In this document: piece by piece, positions 17,746-54,736 of the stretch
How positions within the stretch are numbered: position 1 is the stretch's first letter
Layout: the number at the start of each line of letters is the position of its first letter
DNA from: Polyangiaceae bacterium
Lineage (GTDB): Bacteria > Myxococcota_A > Polyangia > Polyangiales > Polyangiaceae
Assembly (NCBI GenBank): GCA_046351325.1
Contig: JAXLYR010000002.1
Span: 688,334-752,333, forward strand
DNA: 64,000 bases
Direction of reading: 5' to 3'
Notes under the pieces: generated by a model
Database searches by the model: none
What the model was told of the DNA's origin: nothing
The model's input: the letters and a program-made list of their open reading frames with translations, nothing else
Program-made: the position numbers and the translations under genes

Positions 17746-18093
17746 TCAGCGTTGTACGAGGGTGAAGACGGTCCCCTCGGTGTCGCGGACGATGGAGATC
17801 ACCACGCCGGGCGCGACCTCGGTGGGGGCGTTCTCGACGGCGCCGCCCGCGCTCTCGACTCGACTGCACGCTGCACCCAAATCGCGAACGGCGAAATGGA
17901 GGCCAGTCCGGCTGCCCCGGTAATCGGCGCTCCGCGCGAGCCCGATGCGGACCCCCGCGACGTGCAGCGACGCCCAGTCGGCCGAGGAGAACGACACCGA
18001 CGCTCCAAAGGCGCTCACATAGAACTGCGTCGCGCGCGGGATGTCTTTGGCGTCCAGTGCAAAGAAGGTCTCGACGACTTCATTCGCTGACAC
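17746..18093 (-). CDS. VOC/glyoxalase-family protein
   Basis: 115-aa single VOC module (GLHFAVRDL). Confidence 0.5.
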   Translation of the reverse strand: MSANEVVETFFALDAKDIPRATQFYVSAFGASVSFSSADWASLHVAGVRIGLARSADYRGSRTGLHFAVRDLGAACSRVESAGGAVENAPTEVAPGVVISIVRDTEGTVFTLVQR

Positions 18094-18161
18094 GATCGTC
18101 GGTAGAGGCTAGCGGGCGCTCCCGACGTTCCGCAAGGTGGCCGCCGTTGTTTTCGAGGTGT

Positions 18162-20123
18162 TCAGCGCGCGCGCTGGTCGTCGACGGAGGGCGGCGGGGG
18201 CTCGACGAGCATCGCGGCGCTGGGCAAGAGGGCGGTCAGCTTCCACCGCTCGAGCTGCGCCCGCTCGGCGTTCGACGTGAGGAGCTGACGGAAATAGGAA
18301 GAGGCGACGGCGAGCAGGAGATAGATGCCTATCGTCGTCCCCGTGACGGTGAGCAGCGTCGTGCGCGCATCGAGCGGTACGACGACGGAGTGCACGTGCA
18401 TGCCCGCGCCGTCGAACATCGTCGTAGGCGCGAGCACGCCGGCCTGCTCGAGGACGATGGGGGACACGATGGTCGCCAGGCCGAGGGCGACAGTGCCGGT
18501 CTGCCATTGGCGCTTTCCGAGCATGACGAACAGGGCCACAGCGACGGTGATGAGACCCGGAGTCGTGACGAACGGGCCGATCACCCGCGAGGCGATCGCG
18601 AGGCTCGCGAGGCACGCCCCGAGCGTCACGAAATAGAGCCCACGCGTGCGCTCGCGCACCTGCGTATTCAGGAACAAGAGCCCGATGAACGCGATCTGCG
18701 CGACCGCCCAAAGGGCGAGCGTGACGGGTTGCCGCGGATGGGTGAGCGCCAGCAATCCCATGAGCGGCAGGAACGCCGCGGACATCTGCGCGCCCGCTCG
18801 GGCTGCTCGTCGGTAGACACGCATGTGTGCAGCTTCGACGGCGTTCGCGACGGACTCGGGGACCTCGGTGTCGGGCAGCGCCTCGAACATCGCTCGGAGC
18901 ACCAAGTCTTGGACGCCTTGGTTGGTCGGATCGAGCGCGAGCGCACGGCCCGCGTGGCGGAGCGCACGCTCGCGGCTCCCGACTGCCTCGCTTTGGGACG
19001 TGAGCGCGGCGCTCTCCGCGAGGAGCTGGCCTGCCTTCTCGACCTCGCTCGCGGCGATGGTCGCGCGGGCCTGCACGTCGCGGTCGCCGTCGAGGAAGCG
19101 CTGCACGTCGTCGATGAGGAGATCGAGGGTCGCGTAGCGCTCCTTCGGATCGAGCGCGGTCGCGCGCAAGCAAATGGCCACGAGCTCGGGCGGGGTTCTC
19201 CGGGCCTCGGTCACCGAGCGCACGCGCGCCGAGGCGTCCTTCAGCGTCGCGTCGAGCGCGTCGACGGAGCTGCCGCGATGCAGTCGCTCCATCGTCAAGA
19301 GCTCGAACAAGATCGCGCCGAGCGCGTAGACGTCCGCCCTCGCGTCGACGCGCGCCGCGTTGCTCAGCTGTTCGGGGGCCATGTATCCAGGTGATCCGAG
19401 GAGCTCGCCTTGATGCGTGCTGCCCTCGGCGAGCGGCGTCGGCGGAATGCTCTCGAGGTGGCTCCGCTCGATGCCCGCGCGCTCGGCGAGCGTTCTGCCG
19501 TCGGGTGCGTCGCGCCGCAGCTTCGCGATGCCCCAGTCGATGACGTAGACCTCGCCGAACTCGCCGAGCATGATGTTCGCGGGCTTGAGATCGCGGTGAA
19601 TCACGCCGTTCGTGTGCGCGTAGTGGACCGACTGGCAGATCGTGACGAAGAGCGACAGGAGTCGCACGCGACTGAAGCGCGCCGACACGATCGGATCCCC
19701 TGACGCGAGCCGCGAGAGGACCGACTCGAGCGACGCTCCGCGGACCCACTGCATCACGAAGAACGGGTCGCCCTCGCTGGTCGTTCCGGCGTCATGAACC
19801 GGGACGACCCCGGGATGATCGAGCTGCGCTTGCAGCTGGTATTCGCGTTCGAAACGGCCGAGATCCGTCGGGAGTTGCGGTCGCGCGACCTTCACCGCGA
19901 CGCGGCGATTCAGGCGCGCGTCGCGCGCGATGTAGACCTCTCCCATCCCACCGATCGCGAGGGGCTCGGCGACCCCGTAGCGCTCGTCGAGCAGCTTGGG
20001 CTCACCGCGACGTGCCGGCGGGCTGTCGAGCGGGCGCGTCGGCACCTCACCCGTCGGTCGAGCCCCGTCGTCGTCATGACGATCGTGCTGACTCGGGTGC
20101 AGTCCCCCAGACTTCACTCCCAT
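18162..20123 (-). CDS. Ser/Thr protein kinase with C-terminal polytopic membrane domain
   Basis: Canonical [21 protein letters not shown] and APE motifs, followed by about six hydrophobic helices in the C-terminal 300 aa. Confidence 0.85.
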
Positions 20124-38784: not shown

Positions 38785-41185
38785 TCAGGCCCGCGCGCGA
38801 TACGGGCGGCTCCCACCGTCGAAGCTGTGGATCGCGGGGCGCAGTCGGCGCTCGTAAACCCAGCCGAAGGCGATGAGCAGGACGCCGAAGCCCAGCATCA
38901 GCACGCCGAAGTGGACGCGCCCCGCGAGCTTGCCGAAGTACTCGACGAGGACGGTGATCGCGATGGCGACCGAGCCCATCCTCACGAGCGCGCGGCGCTG
39001 GAAGAAGAGCCCGACGCCGAGCGAGAGGGAGGCTGCCGCGAGCTCGATCGTGCCGTGCACGAGGTCATGCGCGAGGTTGAACGTCATGACGACGCCGAAG
39101 ACGACGAGGACCACCGCGGGGGCGCCGATCGCGACGACCTCGCGGGTGGTCGCGGCGCCCGTCGCGGGCCGTCGATCGAGGAGCGCCGACGTGGTGACGA
39201 CCGCGACGCCGCCGAGCAGCACGAGCTCGGGGAAGAGCGGGCTCTCACCCGCACCGAACGCGCGCGCGACGCCGAGACAAGGTGGGATCGTGAGCGCCAG
39301 CGCTCCGAACGCGAGGGCTGCGGCGTCCTTCCTCCAGCGCGCGAGGCCGACGAGCGCCGCGCCTGCCAGCGTCGCCCCGACCAGCACACTCGGCGCGAGG
39401 GCGGTCGCAGCGCAAACCCCGAGCCCGAGCGTCGCGTAGGCCTGACCACGCAGCCCCGCGCCAGCGTCGGCCGCGGCCTCGCGCCGACGACGCGCGATCT
39501 CACCGACGACATCGAGGACGACGGCGATCGTCGCGACGCTCGCCACGAGCGGCCACGGACCGAGACGCGAGGGCGTAGCCTCGTTGAAGAACATCGAGAT
39601 CGTCCACGCCGCCGCTGCGAGCGAGAAGCTCGCCCAGAAGGCGCGCGACCGCGGAGCGACCCAAACGAAGGTGAGGCCGAGCGCGAGCAGCGCCCCGAGC
39701 CACCCGGCCGCCGCGAGCGCGAAGCTCGTGCCCGCGCGTGTCGCGCTCAAGAAGACGTTCGCCGGTCCAAGCACGACGAACACGTGGCCGGCGGCTTTGA
39801 CGAGGTCGATCGAGAACACTCCAACGCGTGGTGGTGAGCCGTAGCGCGAGCGCTCGAGCAGAGCGGCGAGCCCGATCGCGATGGGGCCGACGACCAGCGC
39901 AGCGATCGCGGACGAGGCGAAAGACACGTGGATCGCGTGTGATTCGACGAGCCCAGCGGAGAACATCGCCGCGCTCAGCCAGACGAGGAGCACGACGGCG
40001 CCGAGCGTGGGCACGCGAGCGAAGCGCACCGAGGCCGCGAACACTGCGCCGCTCACGAGCGCGCCGAGAGCGATCCGCGGCAGCAACGAGAGCTCGGGCG
40101 CGACCGCGATCTCGAGCTGCAAGACGAGCGCCGCGACGATCGCGAGCGCACCCGGCAGCGGGCCCAGCCACGCGCCGCGCGAGGTCTTTCGCAGCCCGAG
40201 CGCGAGCGCTGCGGCGACGAAGAGCAGAGCGTGTGGCAAGAGGCGCGGCAGCGAGGTGTTCGACAATGCCGCCGTCGCGGTCGTGGGGACGAAGAGGAGG
40301 ACCGCTGCGCACATCGCCAAGGTGGCGCGCACGCTCCGAGAGCGCTGCGGCGACGCGACGACGAGGAGACCCGCGACGACCACGCTCGCGAAGGCCGTAG
40401 CCGCGAGACCCGTGATGCTCGGCGCGCCCTGATGTTCGACGAGCGCGAGCTCGAGCGCGGGCAAGAGGACGAGCAGCGCGGAGGCCACCTGCGCGAGCGG
40501 TCGAGACGCCCGAACGAGAGCTCGACTCAGGCGACGGTTGAACCAAGGCCGCGCCATGAGCGCACCGAGGACTGCGAAGAGGGCCGCCAGCCCGCCCGCG
40601 AGCGGCGACGGCGGTCGCGTCGCGAGCAGCGGGAGCGGCGCGAGGATCGCGATCGCAGCGTAGAACGCAGCGAGGCGGCCCGCCGCCCGCGAGAGGACGT
40701 CGACGCGCGTCCGCGCGCCAGCGACGGCCGCCGCGATCGCGAGCCCGGCGGTGGCCGCGGAGAGGAGCGCGCTGATCGTGAGCGGGCTCGGTGATCTCGA
40801 GCGCGAACCCAGCGAATACGCTCGCGACGATGAACGAGCCTGTCGCGAAGACCGCGAGGCCCGACGAGCGACGAAGCGCTGCCATCCCGGCGTAGAGCAC
40901 CGTCATCAGGGCCGAGATCGCGGCCCACGAGGGCATCTCGGGCTGCGGCCAGCGCGCGAGGAGCGCCTGGCGAGCGGTCACCTGAGCCCGAGCGCGACGG
41001 TCTCGAGCGCGTTCGCAGCGATCGAGAGCTCGCGACGCCGCGCGACCTGAGAGGCGACCGCGCACGCCACGATCGCAGGCGGTCAGCAGGCCGATCGGTC
41101 CGATCGTGCGGTAGTTCGCAAGCGCGAGCGCGACCGCGCCGAGGATGACGAGCGCCGCACCGACGGTGGCGACGACCCGCAGCAA
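38785..41185 (-). pseudogene. Large polytopic membrane protein (DUF2339-like), apparent frameshift near 40790
   Basis: The 590-aa ORF (38785..40557) stays open and hydrophobic upstream of its first Met as far as about 40790. A second frame (41185..about 40775) encodes further TM helices. The two join only through a 1-nt frame change. Confidence 0.45.
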
Positions 41186-41379
41186 CGTGGCGCTCGTTCA
41201 GCGGCGCGACCTTCGGCGGCGGGGGCTCGGACTTCGGCAGGCGCGACGCTGGGTTCGGGCCTGTCGCTTCGAGGTCGCGGCGCGCTCCGCGGATGGTTTG
41301 ATCTGCAAAGCATCGCGGAGCATGTGCAGCGCGGGCCGGCGGGCGCGGTCCCTGTCGAGCGCGCCGCGAAGCCAGAGCC

Positions 41380-41976
41380 TCAGGAGCTCGCTCCTCGAGA
41401 GCGCCTTCGCGGACTCCTCTGCAGGTGGCAGATCGTCGGTTGCGAACTGCCGGATTTGTCCGAGGGGGAGCTCCCCGAAGAGCGCGAGGTGCGTGATCGC
41501 CGCGAGCAATGCACACGACGCGGGGCGGTCGGGGAGCGCCCCGCGACGACCTCGGGGGCGGCGAAGGCGACTGAGCCCGGGGGTGCGCCGTCGCGCAGGC
41601 GTGCCCTGAAGGCGTGTGCGTCCACGTCGGGCAGCACCACGAGCGCCGCGCCGGCGTCGGTCAGACGCAGGAGCTCGGGCGACAGTGCGCCGTGCACGCG
41701 CCCCGAAGCGTGCAACGCGGAGAGGACGTCGACGGCCACGAGGAGCGCAGCGCGCAGCTCGTCGGTGTCACGAGGTGCGAGCACGTCGTGTTCGCCGACA
41801 GCCGTGTAAACGACGTCCACGGCGCCGGCCTCTGCCGCGACGACGCGAACATCGATTCGCTGCGCTTCATCGGTCTTCAGCTCGGCGAGCGACGTCGCCG
41901 CGTCGCGCGAGGTCAGGGGGCATCGGGCGAGGACCTGTGCGGCGGCGCCCGAGACGCGCTCGCAAACCAGGCCATT
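41380..41976 (-). pseudogene. Protein-kinase-like remnant (C-lobe only, degenerate)
   Basis: Degenerate subdomain VIb-VIII pattern (HASGRVHGALSPELL, AFAAPEVV). No Gly-loop or N-lobe. Confidence 0.3.
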
Positions 41977-44052: not shown

Positions 44053-44484
44053 ATGAAGGCGTTGGGTTGGGTTTTAGCGGGTCTCGTGGCGCTGGTGGGT
44101 TGTGGGGATGACGGCACCGGCGGCTCGGGCGCGACCGGCAATGCCGGTGGTGCAGGCGGCAGCGGCGGCAACGTCAACGGGGTGGGTGGTAACAACGGTG
44201 TCAGCAGCACGGGCGTCGGCGGCAACTTCGGCGGCGGTGGCTGCGTGAGCTGCGCGGTGAGCATCACCCCAGGCGAGAACCCCGACGGGTTGCCGACGTG
44301 CGTCGGGCTCTCGACGGAACTCTACGACGGGCTCGTCAACTGCATGTGCATCGACGCCTGCGTCGTCGAATGCGGAGACAACATCTGCGCGGGCGGGGAC
44401 ATCATGCAGTCCTGCCAGGACTGCATCCTCGACACCGTCGCGGGCTGCGGAAATCAGTTCAACGACTGCGCGAACGACCTCTGA
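44053..44484 (+). CDS. Small Cys-rich secreted lipoprotein
   Basis: Lipobox LVGCGDD, G-rich linker, 14 Cys in the last 90 aa. Confidence 0.4.
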   Translation: MKALGWVLAGLVALVGCGDDGTGGSGATGNAGGAGGSGGNVNGVGGNNGVSSTGVGGNFGGGGCVSCAVSITPGENPDGLPTCVGLSTELYDGLVNCMCIDACVVECGDNICAGGDIMQSCQDCILDTVAGCGNQFNDCANDL

Positions 44485-45011
44485 CGGATCAGGCGGTTGC
44501 GGGTGCGGAGACGACCGTGGAGGCCGGCTGGGGGCCGTCTCGGCGGGGTGCCGATGAACGGCACGCGCGTGCCCATCACGTAGTCGAAGAGCGGCGTCGT
44601 CACGCACCAGTTCTTGTGCTGGTCGGGACCGAGGTGATGGTCCATGTGCCAGGGCACCCATTTGCGGCCCCACGCCGGATCGATGTGGCTCTGCTTGTGG
44701 ATTGCGTAATAGGCAATCCCGCTGAGGGCGCCGGCGGCGACGAAGCTCGGGGAGACGGCGAGGAGCGGCGCGGTGATCGCGGTCGTGAGCGCGACGCCGA
44801 AGATCTCCTTCGCCTTGGAGGGGGTCTCGAGGATCGGCTCGCGATACATCGGGTCCTCACCTCCCGTCTTGCGGACGTTCTTGTGGTGCTCGTGCCAGTG
44901 GAAGGCCCAGAAGCTGTCCTTCTTACGGCCGAGGCCGTGCAGCACGTATTTGTGCGCGACCCACTCGAAGGCGTTTGCAGCGACGAGACCGAGAGCGAAC
45001 CCAGCGAGCAT
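44454..45011 (-). CDS. Fatty acid hydroxylase / sterol desaturase superfamily membrane enzyme
   Basis: Three His boxes (HWHEHH, HKQSH, HMDHH). Confidence 0.65.
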   Translation of the reverse strand: MLAGFALGLVAANAFEWVAHKYVLHGLGRKKDSFWAFHWHEHHKNVRKTGGEDPMYREPILETPSKAKEIFGVALTTAITAPLLAVSPSFVAAGALSGIAYYAIHKQSHIDPAWGRKWVPWHMDHHLGPDQHKNWCVTTPLFDYVMGTRVPFIGTPPRRPPAGLHGRLRTRNRLIRQRSFAQSLN

Positions 45012-46671: not shown

Positions 46672-48301
46672 TCACTCCGGATCGGACGCTGTCGGCACGC
46701 GAACGTCGGTGATCGTCGACTCGTCGGCGATCAGCGAGGTCTGGCTGCGGGCGGGCTCGCGCGGGCGCGGCATGTCGTCGCTCATCGAGGCCTGCGCGAG
46801 CCCCGTCATGTCCATCTCGAGGGTGGGAAGCGGCTCGAGCGGCGTCAGCGCGATCGCCATCGGCGCGAGATCGATCTCGACGGTGCGGCGGACGTTCTCG
46901 ACCACCGTGGTCTCGTTGTCGAAGTCGTAGCGGGCCTCGCGCAGGTTCGGGAGCGTCACGGACGAGGGCGACGCGCTGACTCGATGCGAGCGGTCGTGGG
47001 TCTGCGCGTCCTTCTCGAAGAGCGCGAGCGTGTGTCCCTCGGCGGCGAGCTCGAAATGAGGCTCGAGCGTGTTCGCGAGATCGGGCAGGACCGCGATGCG
47101 TCCGCGCGCGGTCTCGTCGAGCGCGCGGGCCGCGGCCTCGAGCGAGCCTTGGTGCGCGACGCCTCCGCGCGCGACGACGAGCGACGCGGCGGGCATCGCC
47201 GTCTGCAGGATGAGCGCAGCGCGCGCGGCGCGAATGACGGCGGCGTTCACGGCCGCGGTCGCGGTCGAGGAAGACGCGACGTGCACGGTGACGGTCGAGT
47301 CGTCGACGTGATCGACGCGCCCGCCGAGCTCGCGCACGAGCAGCTCGACGCCCTCGAGGACGCCCTCGGTGTCGAGCGTGCGGCCGATGGGCTCGGGCGA
47401 GCGACAGAGGACCACTCCGCCCCCTGGATCCGACCTCACGAACGGCGCGAGGAGGGCGCTCGCGTCCTCACGCGCGAGGTCGGGCGTGAGGCCGTCGTCG
47501 ATGGCCTCGATCGCGGCGAGGGCCGAGTCCGCCGTGGGGCGCGCGACCGGATCCTTCGTGAGCAAGCGAACCGCGAGCGTCTCGAGCGCGGGCAAGTGGC
47601 GTCGGCCTGGGTCGACGCTCGCGACGGGCGGCGGAGCCTCGTAGAGGACGCGCAGCTGGCTCGCGAAGACGTTCTCGGCCGCGAACGGCGAGCGCCCCGC
47701 GAGCATCGTGTAGAGGAGCGCGCCCGCGGCGAAGACATCGGCGGCGGGGCTCGGTCCCTCGCCGCGAACGCGCTCGGGCGAGAGGTAGCTCGCGGCGCCG
47801 AGCTCGAGGCTCGGGAAGCTGCTCTCCGAAGCGATGAGGGACGGAGCGACGAGCACGACGTCGACGAGGGTCGCCTCGACGATGCGGCCGCGCGCGAGCG
47901 CGACGTGCGCCGGCGTCACGGAGCCGTGCGAAAGACCGAGCTTTTCGAGGTGCGCGAGCGCGTCGAGCACGCGACGAATCACCACGACGGTCTCGGTGCG
48001 CGAGAAGCCCTCGGGCAGGACCTCGGTCAGGACGGGGCCCTCGACGGGCTCGACGATGACGTACGCGTCGCCGTGGGGCGCGACCTGCGTCGAGCACGCG
48101 CTCGAGCGCGGGGTGCGGCGCCTGCGCGAGCGCGGCCGACGTGCCGCGCAGCTGCTCTTCCCGGCGGTCGAGAGGCAAGTAGAGGCGCACCGCGATCGCG
48201 CGACCGTGCGGATCGACAGCGCGAGAAGACGGCGTGCGGCGCTGCGCGCGACGCAGCGCTCGATCACCTGCCGCCGACGACGTCGCCTCGCTCCACGTCA
48301 C
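46672..48301 (-). pseudogene. Kinase-like (pseudokinase) plus degenerate class III cyclase-homology domain protein, frameshift near 48080
   Basis: The N-lobe (AIAVR, HPALERVLDAG) lies in the 48301 frame. The hinge, catalytic loop (LSHGSVTPAH, no Asp) and the cyclase-like C-terminus lie in the 48267 frame. Confidence 0.5.
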
Positions 48302-48361
48302 GTCATGGTGCCGGAGGCTGCCGCGGGGGTAAAGCGAGCGATTCGCCGTGCGAACGTGCGA

Positions 48362-49788
48362 TCAGGCGACGACCGAGAGGGCGCGCCGGCCCTCGAGGAA
48401 GGTCGACGATGCGGCCGCGATTCGACCCTCCGCGATGGCCCACACGATGAGGCCCGCGCCGCGGCGAGCGTCCCCATGATGAAGACGTTCGCGGCGCGCG
48501 CGTGACCCGCGAGAGCCCGGCCGCGTCCGCGCCGAGGTTGCCGCGCGCGTCGACCTCGACGCCGAGCTCGGCGTAGAGCGGCTCGGCGCGACGCCGGTGA
48601 AGCCCGTCGCGACGAGCACGAGACCGGCCGGCTGCACGACCTCCGTGTCGGGGACGATGATGAAGGCACCGAACGAATCTCTGCGAGCCTCGGAAGAGAC
48701 GCGCGACGCGACTGTTGCCTCGAGGCGTTGGCCGTGATGCGAGCGAAGATGCGCCGCCCTTCGTGCGCGGCGGAGGTTCGGTGCACGAGCGGCCACTGGC
48801 CAAGGGTTCTCGCTCGCGCGGCGCTCGCCTGGTGGCCGCGGCATGATCTCGATCTGCGACGCCGCGCGCGCGCCCTGGCGGTGTGCGGTCCCGAGGCAAT
48901 CCGCGCCCGTGTCGCCGCCGCCGAGGATCACGACGTCAGTGCCCTGCGGCGTCGATGCGAGCGTCCGCGGGATCCCGTCCCCTGCGACCACGCGGTTCTG
49001 CTGCGTGAGGTACCCATCGCGGGGCGCACGCCGGGCAGGTCCTCAATGGGCACGCCGAGGCGGCGCGGCGCTTCGGCGCCGACGGCGAGCCCGATCGCGT
49101 CGAACTCGGCGAGGAGCCCGCGCCGCGCACGTCCTTGCCGACCTCGACGCCGGCACACGAAGCGCACGCCCTCTCCGCGGAGCTGCTCGAGCCGCCGGTC
49201 GATCAGCGCCTTTTCCATCTTGAAATCGGGAATTCCGTACCGGAGCAGGCCCCCTGGTCGATCGGCCTTCTCGTAGACGGTGACCGCGCGGCCGCGGCGC
49301 GCGAGCCCTTGCAGGTGCACGCGAGGCCCGCCGGGCCTGAGCCGGACGATCGCGACGCGCTTGCCGTTCGCCGCGCGCCGCGAAGATGCGGGCGCGGGGG
49401 CGAGCTCCGCCGAGGTGATGTGATCGGCGATCACGCGCTCGATCTGCTTGATGGGTGACGGGCTGATCGTTGATCGACAGCACGCACGCGGGCTCACAAG
49501 GCGCGGGGCAGAGCCGGCTGGTGAAGGGGGAAGTTGTTCGTCGCCTCGAGGCGTCGGCTGCGCGCGGGGTCCCCGCGATAGACGAGGTCGGTCTTCCACC
49601 CGGGGATGAGGCTGCCGAGCGGACAGCCGCGATGATAACCGATGCCGCAGTCCATGCAGCGGCCCGCCTGTGCCCGAGCCTTCGGCCTGGCGAGCGCGCT
49701 CGAACTCGCGGTAGTCGCGGACGCGCTCCTCGATCGGACGCTTCTTCGCCGTCTCGCGCGGCGTTCCATGAACCGTCGGCTTGCCCAT
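48362..49788 (-). pseudogene. gltD: Glutamate synthase small subunit (gltD), five or more frameshifts
   Basis: GltD segments are recognisable in all three minus-strand frames: MGKPT..RPIEERVRDYREF; CMDCGIGYHRGCPLGSLIPGWKTDLVYRG..ATNNFP; KRVAIV; VTVYEKADRPGGLLRYGIPDFKMEKALIDRRLEQLRGEGVRF; DVVILGGGDTGADCLGTAHRQGA. Confidence 0.6.
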
Positions 49789-50127
49789 CGCGCTACTCCG
49801 CCGCCACGAGGTGGACCTTCTGTTTCCTCGCGCCTCAATGTACGCGCTCGAGTCGAAGTGGCAGGACCTTTGACGAGCTCGGCCTTCGCGGTGGCCCAGC
49901 CGTCGACGAGGCGCCGCCCGAGCACGCTACCGGTGAGTCGATGTGGCGGTTCACCGTCGCCAGCACGAAGTCCTCGTCGGCCTCGGTCAGCGTGGTGAGC
50001 CGCACCATCTCCGGGTTCACGCGCAGGGCGAGCGCGCCCGTGCGATCCCACACGAACGCGAGCCCGCCGCTCATGCCAAGCCGCGAAGTTGCGACCCGTC
50101 TCACCGAGCAGATCACGCGGCCGCCGG

Positions 50128-54507
<4,380 letters not shown>

Positions 54508-54736
54508 CTGACGCGACGCATTGTGCCCCGGTGTGACGCGCTGCCCAAGCGAATTTCTTCGTTTTCTCTCCACGAGCTACCTCGTTTTGACGCACACGTT
54601 GCCGCACCTCGGGCGCGACCCGCCGCCGCGCTCGATCTCGCTTGACATCGAGATCGTGCCCTCGACTCGGACCATGACTGCCGTCAACTCGCGCAGCGCG
54701 GCTCCCGCCCACGATGACCTCCCCAGGAGGTCTCCT

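Follow-up and report, generated by a model that had tools for sequence, protein, structure and literature searches.

A contiguous 2-kb block of small indels across gltB, gltD and a pseudokinase gene in a Polyangiaceae MAG contig is probably a consensus artefact

Introduction

The glutamate synthase operon (gltBD) in the 64-kb stretch of Polyangiaceae DNA analysed here, called the window below, raises the question of whether the NADPH-dependent glutamate synthase (NADPH-GOGAT) of this organism is decaying or whether the deposited sequence of its genes is locally wrong. The operon resembles other bacterial gltBD operons in its gene order (gltB then gltD), in the presence of all GltB domains and in the Fer4_20 and Pyr_redox_2 domains of GltD, but differs from them in that the deposited gltD cannot be read in a single frame and that gltB ends within the GXGXG domain. 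A first-pass annotation, made from the letters of the sequence, had reported a cluster of six or more frameshifts over three consecutive genes and had left two explanations side by side, namely a patch of low-quality sequence, or a decay of gltBD that would imply a second GOGAT or a GDH route. Here we describe the damaged genes, count and classify the lesions against orthologous loci, and weigh the explanations against each other.

The gltBD operon and the adjoining pseudokinase gene

The main open frame of gltB (50,128..54,573, minus strand) encodes 1,481 amino acids without a frameshift, and the architecture expected of GltB was found in its product, since Pfam recognises all four domains, i.e. 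GATase_2, Glu_syn_central, Glu_synthase (in which FMN lies) and the C-terminal GXGXG beta-helix. The in-frame GXGXG match covers only positions 2-135 of the 190 profile positions, and the frame ends with 'GCGDHRLRYR*', within the conserved GDHGCEYMTGG motif. The remaining GltB C-terminus (GMSGGLAFV...KVLPL..ERV) was found in other frames at 50,131-49,840, and the displaced 3' tail (49,835..50,149, minus strand) amounts to ~115 codons spread over three frames. The displacement of the GltB end proposed in the first-pass annotation is thus correct, and its size, left unclear there between 93 and ~150 residues, is ~115 residues. The gltB product is 76% identical in amino acid sequence to the GltB of one relative (locus L082) and 73–76% identical to those of its Polyangiaceae relatives; compared with L082, the gltB body shows identities of 0.81, 0.85 and 0.64 at codon positions 1, 2 and 3, respectively. 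Moreover, it is 100% identical to the deposited protein MFO0548725.1, annotated as 'MAG: glutamate synthase-related protein [Polyangiaceae bacterium]', which shows the same aberrant C-terminus. The lesions therefore belong to the deposited record. This protein sits on a MAG contig of 1,141,454 bp, which suggests that long reads were used.

After MFO0548725.1, the best GltB match is no more than 75% identical, and four relatives of this kind were compared. In three of them (L081, L091 and L092), gltD is intact and begins 3-5 nt after gltB. The operon in L081 consists of a gltB of 1,552 aa and a gltD of 477 aa, is followed by a Pkinase gene and is adjoined by a GDH gene; gltD in L092 (492 aa) is likewise followed by a Pkinase gene, and that in L091 encodes 474 aa. 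The fourth, L082, lies on a 1.67-Mb MAG contig; downstream of gltD its gene order agrees with that of the window (Pkinase, a 223-aa gene, TetR and FA_hydroxylase), and its own gltD contains one +1 frameshift, in which CC has become CCC (CCT to CCCT). When genome contigs were searched with the C-terminal 500 aa of GltB, only relatives of 61–69% identity and no close kin were returned, because the peptide patterns are too conserved. Searching metagenome contigs with the pseudokinase described below returned only relatives of 26–31% identity and no independent copy of the organism. Within the 64-kb window, there is no second gltBD and no GDH gene.

Peptides resembling GltD were detected by ORF listing and tblastn in all three minus-strand frames at 49,788-48,362, just as had been noticed at first reading. 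The gltD remnant (48,362..49,788, minus strand) lies directly 3' of gltB, a position that agrees with that in the relatives. Its length is approximately intact (1,427 nt vs 1,429–1,434 nt in the relatives), and the motifs GSGPAGLAC and ILGGGDTGADC are present. It carries 12 well-supported frameshifts, or 16–19 at a permissive penalty, and only after frame correction does its product show both Fer4_20 (E 2e-12) and the FAD/NADPH oxidoreductase domain (Pyr_redox_2, profile positions 2-291 of 291, E 1.5e-15). No in-frame stop is present in gltD after the correction. A single-frame GltD with an intact Cys-ligand motif (C-x-x-C-G-x-P-F-C-H-x-G-C-P) was not found: at ~49,640 the deposited motif reads CMDCGIGY-HRGCP, CGIPFCH having become CGIGY-H by substitutions and a 3-nt loss besides the frameshifts.

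The coding signal of gltD reappears once the frames are joined. The GC3 of the corrected gene is 0.87, vs 0.92 in the flanks, and its identity to L082 at codon positions 1, 2 and 3 is 0.72, 0.73 and 0.56; for comparison, the values for the intact gltD of L081 against L082 are 0.81, 0.87 and 0.56. Positions 1 and 2 are much better conserved than position 3, which reads as the signature of evolution under purifying selection. The corrected GltD shares 54–61% identity with the relatives, while the relatives share 64–74% among themselves. L081 and L082 are 74% identical in GltD but 86% in GltB, and the other GltD pairs of relatives are 64–66% identical. These values indicate that, within the clade, GltD diverges more quickly than GltB, and that the identity shortfall of the corrected GltD would be only about the cost of 25 local garbles.

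The third gene affected is a kinase-like ORF of 531 aa located 3' of gltD (48,267..46,672). Its catalytic loop reads SHGS instead of HRD and its Lys site reads IAVRL instead of VAIK, and the product is therefore labelled a pseudokinase on this reading. The term 'kinase-cyclase' used earlier goes too far, as Pfam supports a Pkinase domain only. In the open frame, the Pkinase domain is recognised only from profile position 70 onwards, and the called start of the ORF encodes ~65 out-of-frame residues. At the 5' end of the gene (48,070..48,296, minus strand, ~75 codons) there are three frameshifts, where a single frame switch, near 48,080, had been noted before. The remainder (46,672..48,069, minus strand) is a single open frame, whose homology to the L082, L081 and L092 proteins extends from end to end. 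The aligner also placed frameshift pairs in this kinase body, which were rejected as spurious, since the stretches concerned are of low similarity and the ORF is uninterrupted.

Number of lesions

Frameshifts were located with a purpose-written, frameshift-aware aligner, in which a protein is aligned to DNA by dynamic programming with one- or two-base frame slips. The references were three to four intact orthologues (from L081, L082, L091 and L092) of the GltB tail, the GltD protein and the kinase N-terminus, and a site was counted at the strict frameshift penalty only if at least two independent references agreed. Under this rule, 20 frameshift sites were found on the minus strand between ~48,070 and 50,149. 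Five are in the gltB tail (50132, 50109, 50078, ~49940 and ~49871), twelve in gltD (49698, ~49525, ~49450, 49344, 49312, 49152, ~49117, 49013, 48796, ~48726, ~48580 and ~48478), and three at the 5' end of the pseudokinase gene (48268, 48224 and ~48075). The intermediate penalty gave 22 sites with at least two references, and the most permissive penalty gave the 16–19 frameshifts within gltD alone mentioned above. Thus, the cluster over three genes reported by the first-pass annotation was confirmed when indels were counted against orthologous loci, as it had proposed, but its count was understated, since there are at least 20.

In addition, reading the codon alignments by eye revealed extra compensating events that the aligner had absorbed as mismatches. 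One such pair in the gltB tail consists of an inserted C at 50146 and a lost A at 50138, by which GGC TGC GAG TAC has become CGG CTG CGG TAC; the gltB tail has at least five frameshifts, and seven or eight when this pair is counted. Another example is a group of three 1-nt deletions at 49,776-49,760, by which MGKPTGFME has become MGKPTVHG. The true number of indels in the 2,080-bp patch is probably 25–30, which corresponds to ~1.2–1.4%, or roughly one per 70–100 bp. As a control, the 4.4-kb gltB body was treated by the same method; it gave no frameshift at the strict penalty, in agreement with the intact body described before, and two or three spurious calls at permissive penalties, which fall in a variable linker and the N-terminus. 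Global alignments at the nucleotide level were also made with L081 and L082 (~80% identical), but in these spurious 1-nt gap pairs occurred at ~10 per kb in intact genes as well. Single indels could not be placed against such noise, and the alignments were used solely for length and overall identity.

Shape of the block and kinds of lesions

The lesions form one contiguous block of ~2,080 bp (48,070..50,149), which we regard as an inferred low-quality consensus patch. Its outermost lesions are at 50146 and ~48075, and the widest gap between detected neighbours is ~210 bp. The block takes in the final ~115 codons of gltB, gltD in its entirety and ~75 codons at the start of the pseudokinase gene. 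Beyond its edges, there are no lesions in 4,430 bp of gltB and none in ~1,400 bp of the kinase gene, and no frameshifts occur in the GIDE-like and TetR genes of the syntenic segment either. The contrast is seen within single genes: gltB has at least five lesions in its last 0.3 kb, and the kinase gene has three in its first 0.2 kb. At ~1 lesion per 100 bp, a lesion-free stretch of 4.4 kb has a probability of ~e^-44. The block is therefore set by DNA position and not by gene, its sharp edges cutting two genes while a third is swallowed.

Such a shape bears directly on the possibility of real pseudogenisation, in which NADPH-GOGAT would have been lost. The end of gltB, gltD and the start of the pseudokinase gene would then be decaying, and ammonium would be assimilated via GDH or a further GOGAT encoded at another place in the genome. 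In natural bacterial pseudogenes, the lesions are gene-wide, and small indels are accompanied by stops and substitutions as well as by multi-bp deletions, the indels being biased towards loss. A dead gene should collect lesions throughout, and decay is thus disfavoured here because the lesions of the patch are locally confined; they are neither spread over whole genes nor following gene units, but stop abruptly in both gltB and the kinase gene. Furthermore, the rest of gltB is strongly conserved, as its amino acid identity of 76% and its position-2 identity of 0.85 demonstrate. The multi-lesion pseudogenes of reductive genomes, such as that of Mycobacterium leprae, share the many frameshifts per gene with our locus, but in them decay follows gene units and is accompanied by stops, substitutions and deletion-biased multi-bp losses.

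The kinds of lesions point in the same direction. All 20 strict-penalty sites are of ±1–2 nt, and their direction is balanced, with 10 sites of '+1' and 10 of '+2 (= -1)' and no net length change. Most insertions copy the adjacent base, for example C to CC at 50146, 49344 and 49152, CC to CCC at 49453, T to TT at 50078 and AA to AAA at 49871. No large deletions are present in the patch, and after frame correction no substitution excess was detectable, by a test of limited power, which would miss an excess of a few per cent. Hence none of the stops, excess substitutions, deletion bias or multi-bp deletions that mark natural decay was found, while the codon-position conservation and the high GC3 are kept. 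In favour of pseudogenisation, it can be said that the frameshifts do stand in the deposited sequence, that substitutions and an in-frame loss have also damaged a Cys-ligand motif in GltD, and that the family does have another route, as the GDH gene next to the operon in L081 shows. Taking both sides together, we consider real pseudogenisation improbable. The decay alternative of the first-pass annotation is not supported in view of the block shape, the absence of stops and of deletion bias and the preserved coding signal, and neither is the second GOGAT or GDH route that was implied as its consequence.

At the edges of the block, a search for repeats and for mobile-element or IS ends gave only chance GC-rich matches, and there is no composition change. 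The GC content is ~68% in the window and ~72% in the gltBD region (0.72 in the patch). GC content was tried as the cause of the patch and rejected, since the segment at 60.0–60.5 kb has a GC content of 0.75–0.77 and yet is intact. The clean edges also argue against localised hypermutation and against recombination import of a decayed fragment, and the corrected sequence differs from the relatives by about as much as vertical descent would lead one to expect. A related proposal would be biological recoding, that is, programmed ribosomal frameshifting or transcriptional slippage. Programmed frameshifting uses one defined site; no single slippery site conserved in the orthologues was found here, the shifts, at least 20 in number and of either sign, are incompatible with such a process, and the orthologues encode single open frames. 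Nothing specific speaks for recoding, hypermutation or import apart from the bare presence of frameshifts, and the probability that we attach to this whole group is close to nil.

Frameshifts elsewhere in the window

The patch is not the only place in the window where reading frames are broken. There is a well-supported +1 shift at ~44,547, in a C4 run of the fatty-acid hydroxylase gene, by which the conserved end of the hydroxylase has been replaced; it turns up in the shifted frame, where PASTVVSA corresponds to PEATVITA of L082. A further probable shift is located at a C4 run at ~41,522 in a kinase-like gene, and another at ~40,795 in a multi-TM protein, without clear homopolymer context, and the part of this protein that lies downstream lacks a separate start codon. 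For the proteins at 40.8–41.5 kb, word-index search, exhaustive phmmer, Pfam and tblastx against the fetched loci gave no homologues other than the MAG's own proteins, and this suspected second frameshift zone is proposed on intrinsic evidence, its proteins being orphans. At least one isolated homopolymer frameshift thus occurs elsewhere in the window, and there are probably more. The frame changes given by a GC3 hidden Markov model at 16–18, 26–28, 33–36 and 36–39 kb were rejected, as they are separate complete genes according to Pfam.

Discussion

We assign a probability of about 0.88 to the explanation that the patch at 48,070-50,149 is a technical artefact, all sub-variants included, whose cause is inferred from the sequence. 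The patch would be a stretch of the deposited MAG contig in which the consensus is below the quality of its surroundings, most likely a place at which a long-read metagenome assembly (nanopore or PacBio CLR-type) had low coverage or was left unpolished, and where random ±1-nt indels would have broken the end of gltB, the whole of gltD and the start of the next gene. An artefact is favoured because the block ignores gene boundaries and has sharp edges inside two genes, because its indels are small, balanced and length-neutral, and because the coding signal survives correction in the lack of stops, the GC3, the codon-position pattern and the Pfam domains. It is also favoured because the source is a MAG with a contig of such length that long reads are likely, because other frameshifts occur in unrelated genes of the window and one occurs in the gltD of L082 as well, and because gltB and gltD are intact and adjacent in L081, L091 and L092. 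The indel type, the physical block and the errors elsewhere in the assembly are all those of a long-read consensus error patch, and of the two explanations offered by the first-pass annotation, it is the low-quality sequence that these observations favour.

It has been reported that indels are the commonest error in nanopore sequences, that they make apparent pseudogenes in MAGs and that the problem is worse at low coverage (PMC8103633; see also PMC12007338 and PMC11017572). The locus shares with such indel-error 'pseudogenes' of long-read assemblies and MAGs the 1-base indels, often homopolymer length errors, the ORFs split into three frames, and the restoration of the coding signal by frameshift-aware correction (PMC8103633; PMC12007338). 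It differs in the distribution of the errors, which are usually evenly spread, whereas here they are packed into one 2-kb block at ~1–1.4% indels. Some observations count against an artefact. Most of the other 62 kb of the window is clean, so the failure must be strictly local; many of the indels in the patch lie outside long homopolymers; and the Cys motif at ~49,640 has the substitutions and the 3-nt loss in addition to the frameshifts.

Among the artefacts, the consensus might alternatively have been corrupted during polishing by reads of co-occurring related populations, as in a mixture of strains or species, or a gap might have been filled from a single raw read in the course of a hybrid assembly. 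The block-like pattern fits such an origin equally well, cross-mapping is plausible for genes as conserved as gltBD, and the patch does contain non-homopolymer errors and some substitutions. Against it, the gltB body, which is the most conserved part of the operon, is untouched, and the sequence gives nothing to tell this origin from simple low coverage. We regard it as a possible but rather unlikely variant, and its share is included in the overall probability given above for an artefact.

If the frameshifts were true, a Polyangiaceae population would have lost NADPH-GOGAT by a burst of small indels confined to 2 kb and three genes, which we judge very unlikely; it would require an unknown localised indel-generating process together with reliance on GDH or another GOGAT. 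A free-living myxobacterium that has lost GOGAT would be a moderately interesting case, but the evidence points against it. Under the preferred explanation of a consensus artefact, the patch is not a biological feature but an annotation warning for this MAG, and the main value of the finding is a quality flag on it. MFO0548725.1, the 'glutamate synthase-related protein', carries a false C-terminus, and dense local error blocks of this kind can be mistaken for gene decay when long-read MAGs are surveyed for pseudogenes. In the organism itself, gltB (~1,545–1,555 aa), gltD (~475 aa) and the pseudokinase gene are most probably intact, and the NADPH-glutamate synthase operon is most probably functional. 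If metabolism were reconstructed from this MAG, GOGAT, a core step of nitrogen assimilation, would be recorded in error as missing or as a pseudogene.

Frameshifts inside and outside the gltBD patch

The sequence GGTACC occurs five times in the window, and two of these sites, at 50,133 and 49,009, lie inside the patch of dense frameshifts over the gltB 3' tail, gltD and the 5' end of the adjoining kinase-like gene. At both positions the orthologues have GAG TAC and the window's GAG lacks its A, which may reflect a context-specific consensus error or may be coincidence.

Near the 3' terminus of a fatty-acid hydroxylase gene (45,011..44,454, minus strand), a CCCC run at ~44,547 holds a likely isolated +1 frameshift. 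Read in-frame, the tail is an Arg-rich stretch of 32 aa, and in the shifted frame the C-terminus ('...GTRRDGPQPASTVVSAPATA*') matches the C-terminus ('...GTEAELKKPEATVITA*') in L082, the locus of a related Polyangiaceae MAG (GCA_016704335.1, JADJAJ010000051.1). The gltD of L082 has a single +1 frameshift of its own at ~15,408 (GTT CC[C] TGG), where no gene is called; this MAG contig is likewise longer than 1 Mb.

A second cluster of two to six frameshifts is possible at 40,784-41,540 (minus strand), where a GC3/stop-aware hidden Markov model placed six minus-strand frame switches. Here the kinase-like ORF 41,820..41,380 (minus strand) has a continuation in another frame past a C4 run at ~41,522, and the frame changes again at ~40,795 (minus strand) within a multi-TM protein, whose downstream part, in the open frame 40,902..40,558 (minus strand), lacks a separate start codon. 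An Ala/Leu-rich multi-TM protein of 590 aa (38,785-40,557, minus strand), compared with 1.84 billion representative proteins, matched only itself and had no other homologue, the best non-self match spanning ~85 residues at an E value of 2.6e-7.

Genes adjoining gltBD

In L081, another of the four relatives' loci compared, a glutamate dehydrogenase gene (ELFV_dehydrog; 17,926-19,158) lies immediately 3' of the gltBD-kinase cluster; the corresponding position has no such gene in the window and L082, and tblastn found no glutamate dehydrogenase across the whole 64-kb window. Directly downstream of gltBD there is a kinase-like gene in the window (46,672-48,296); of the four relatives, three carry one at that position too (L081, 16,322-17,866; L082, 16,173-17,789; L092, 10,209-11,846), and the products share 42–46% identity. 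The first-pass annotation had labelled it a kinase-cyclase protein, and the 'cyclase' part is unsupported, since Pfam gives a Pkinase domain alone. The HRD and VAIK catalytic residues are absent. A regulatory tie of this gene to nitrogen assimilation would be speculation.
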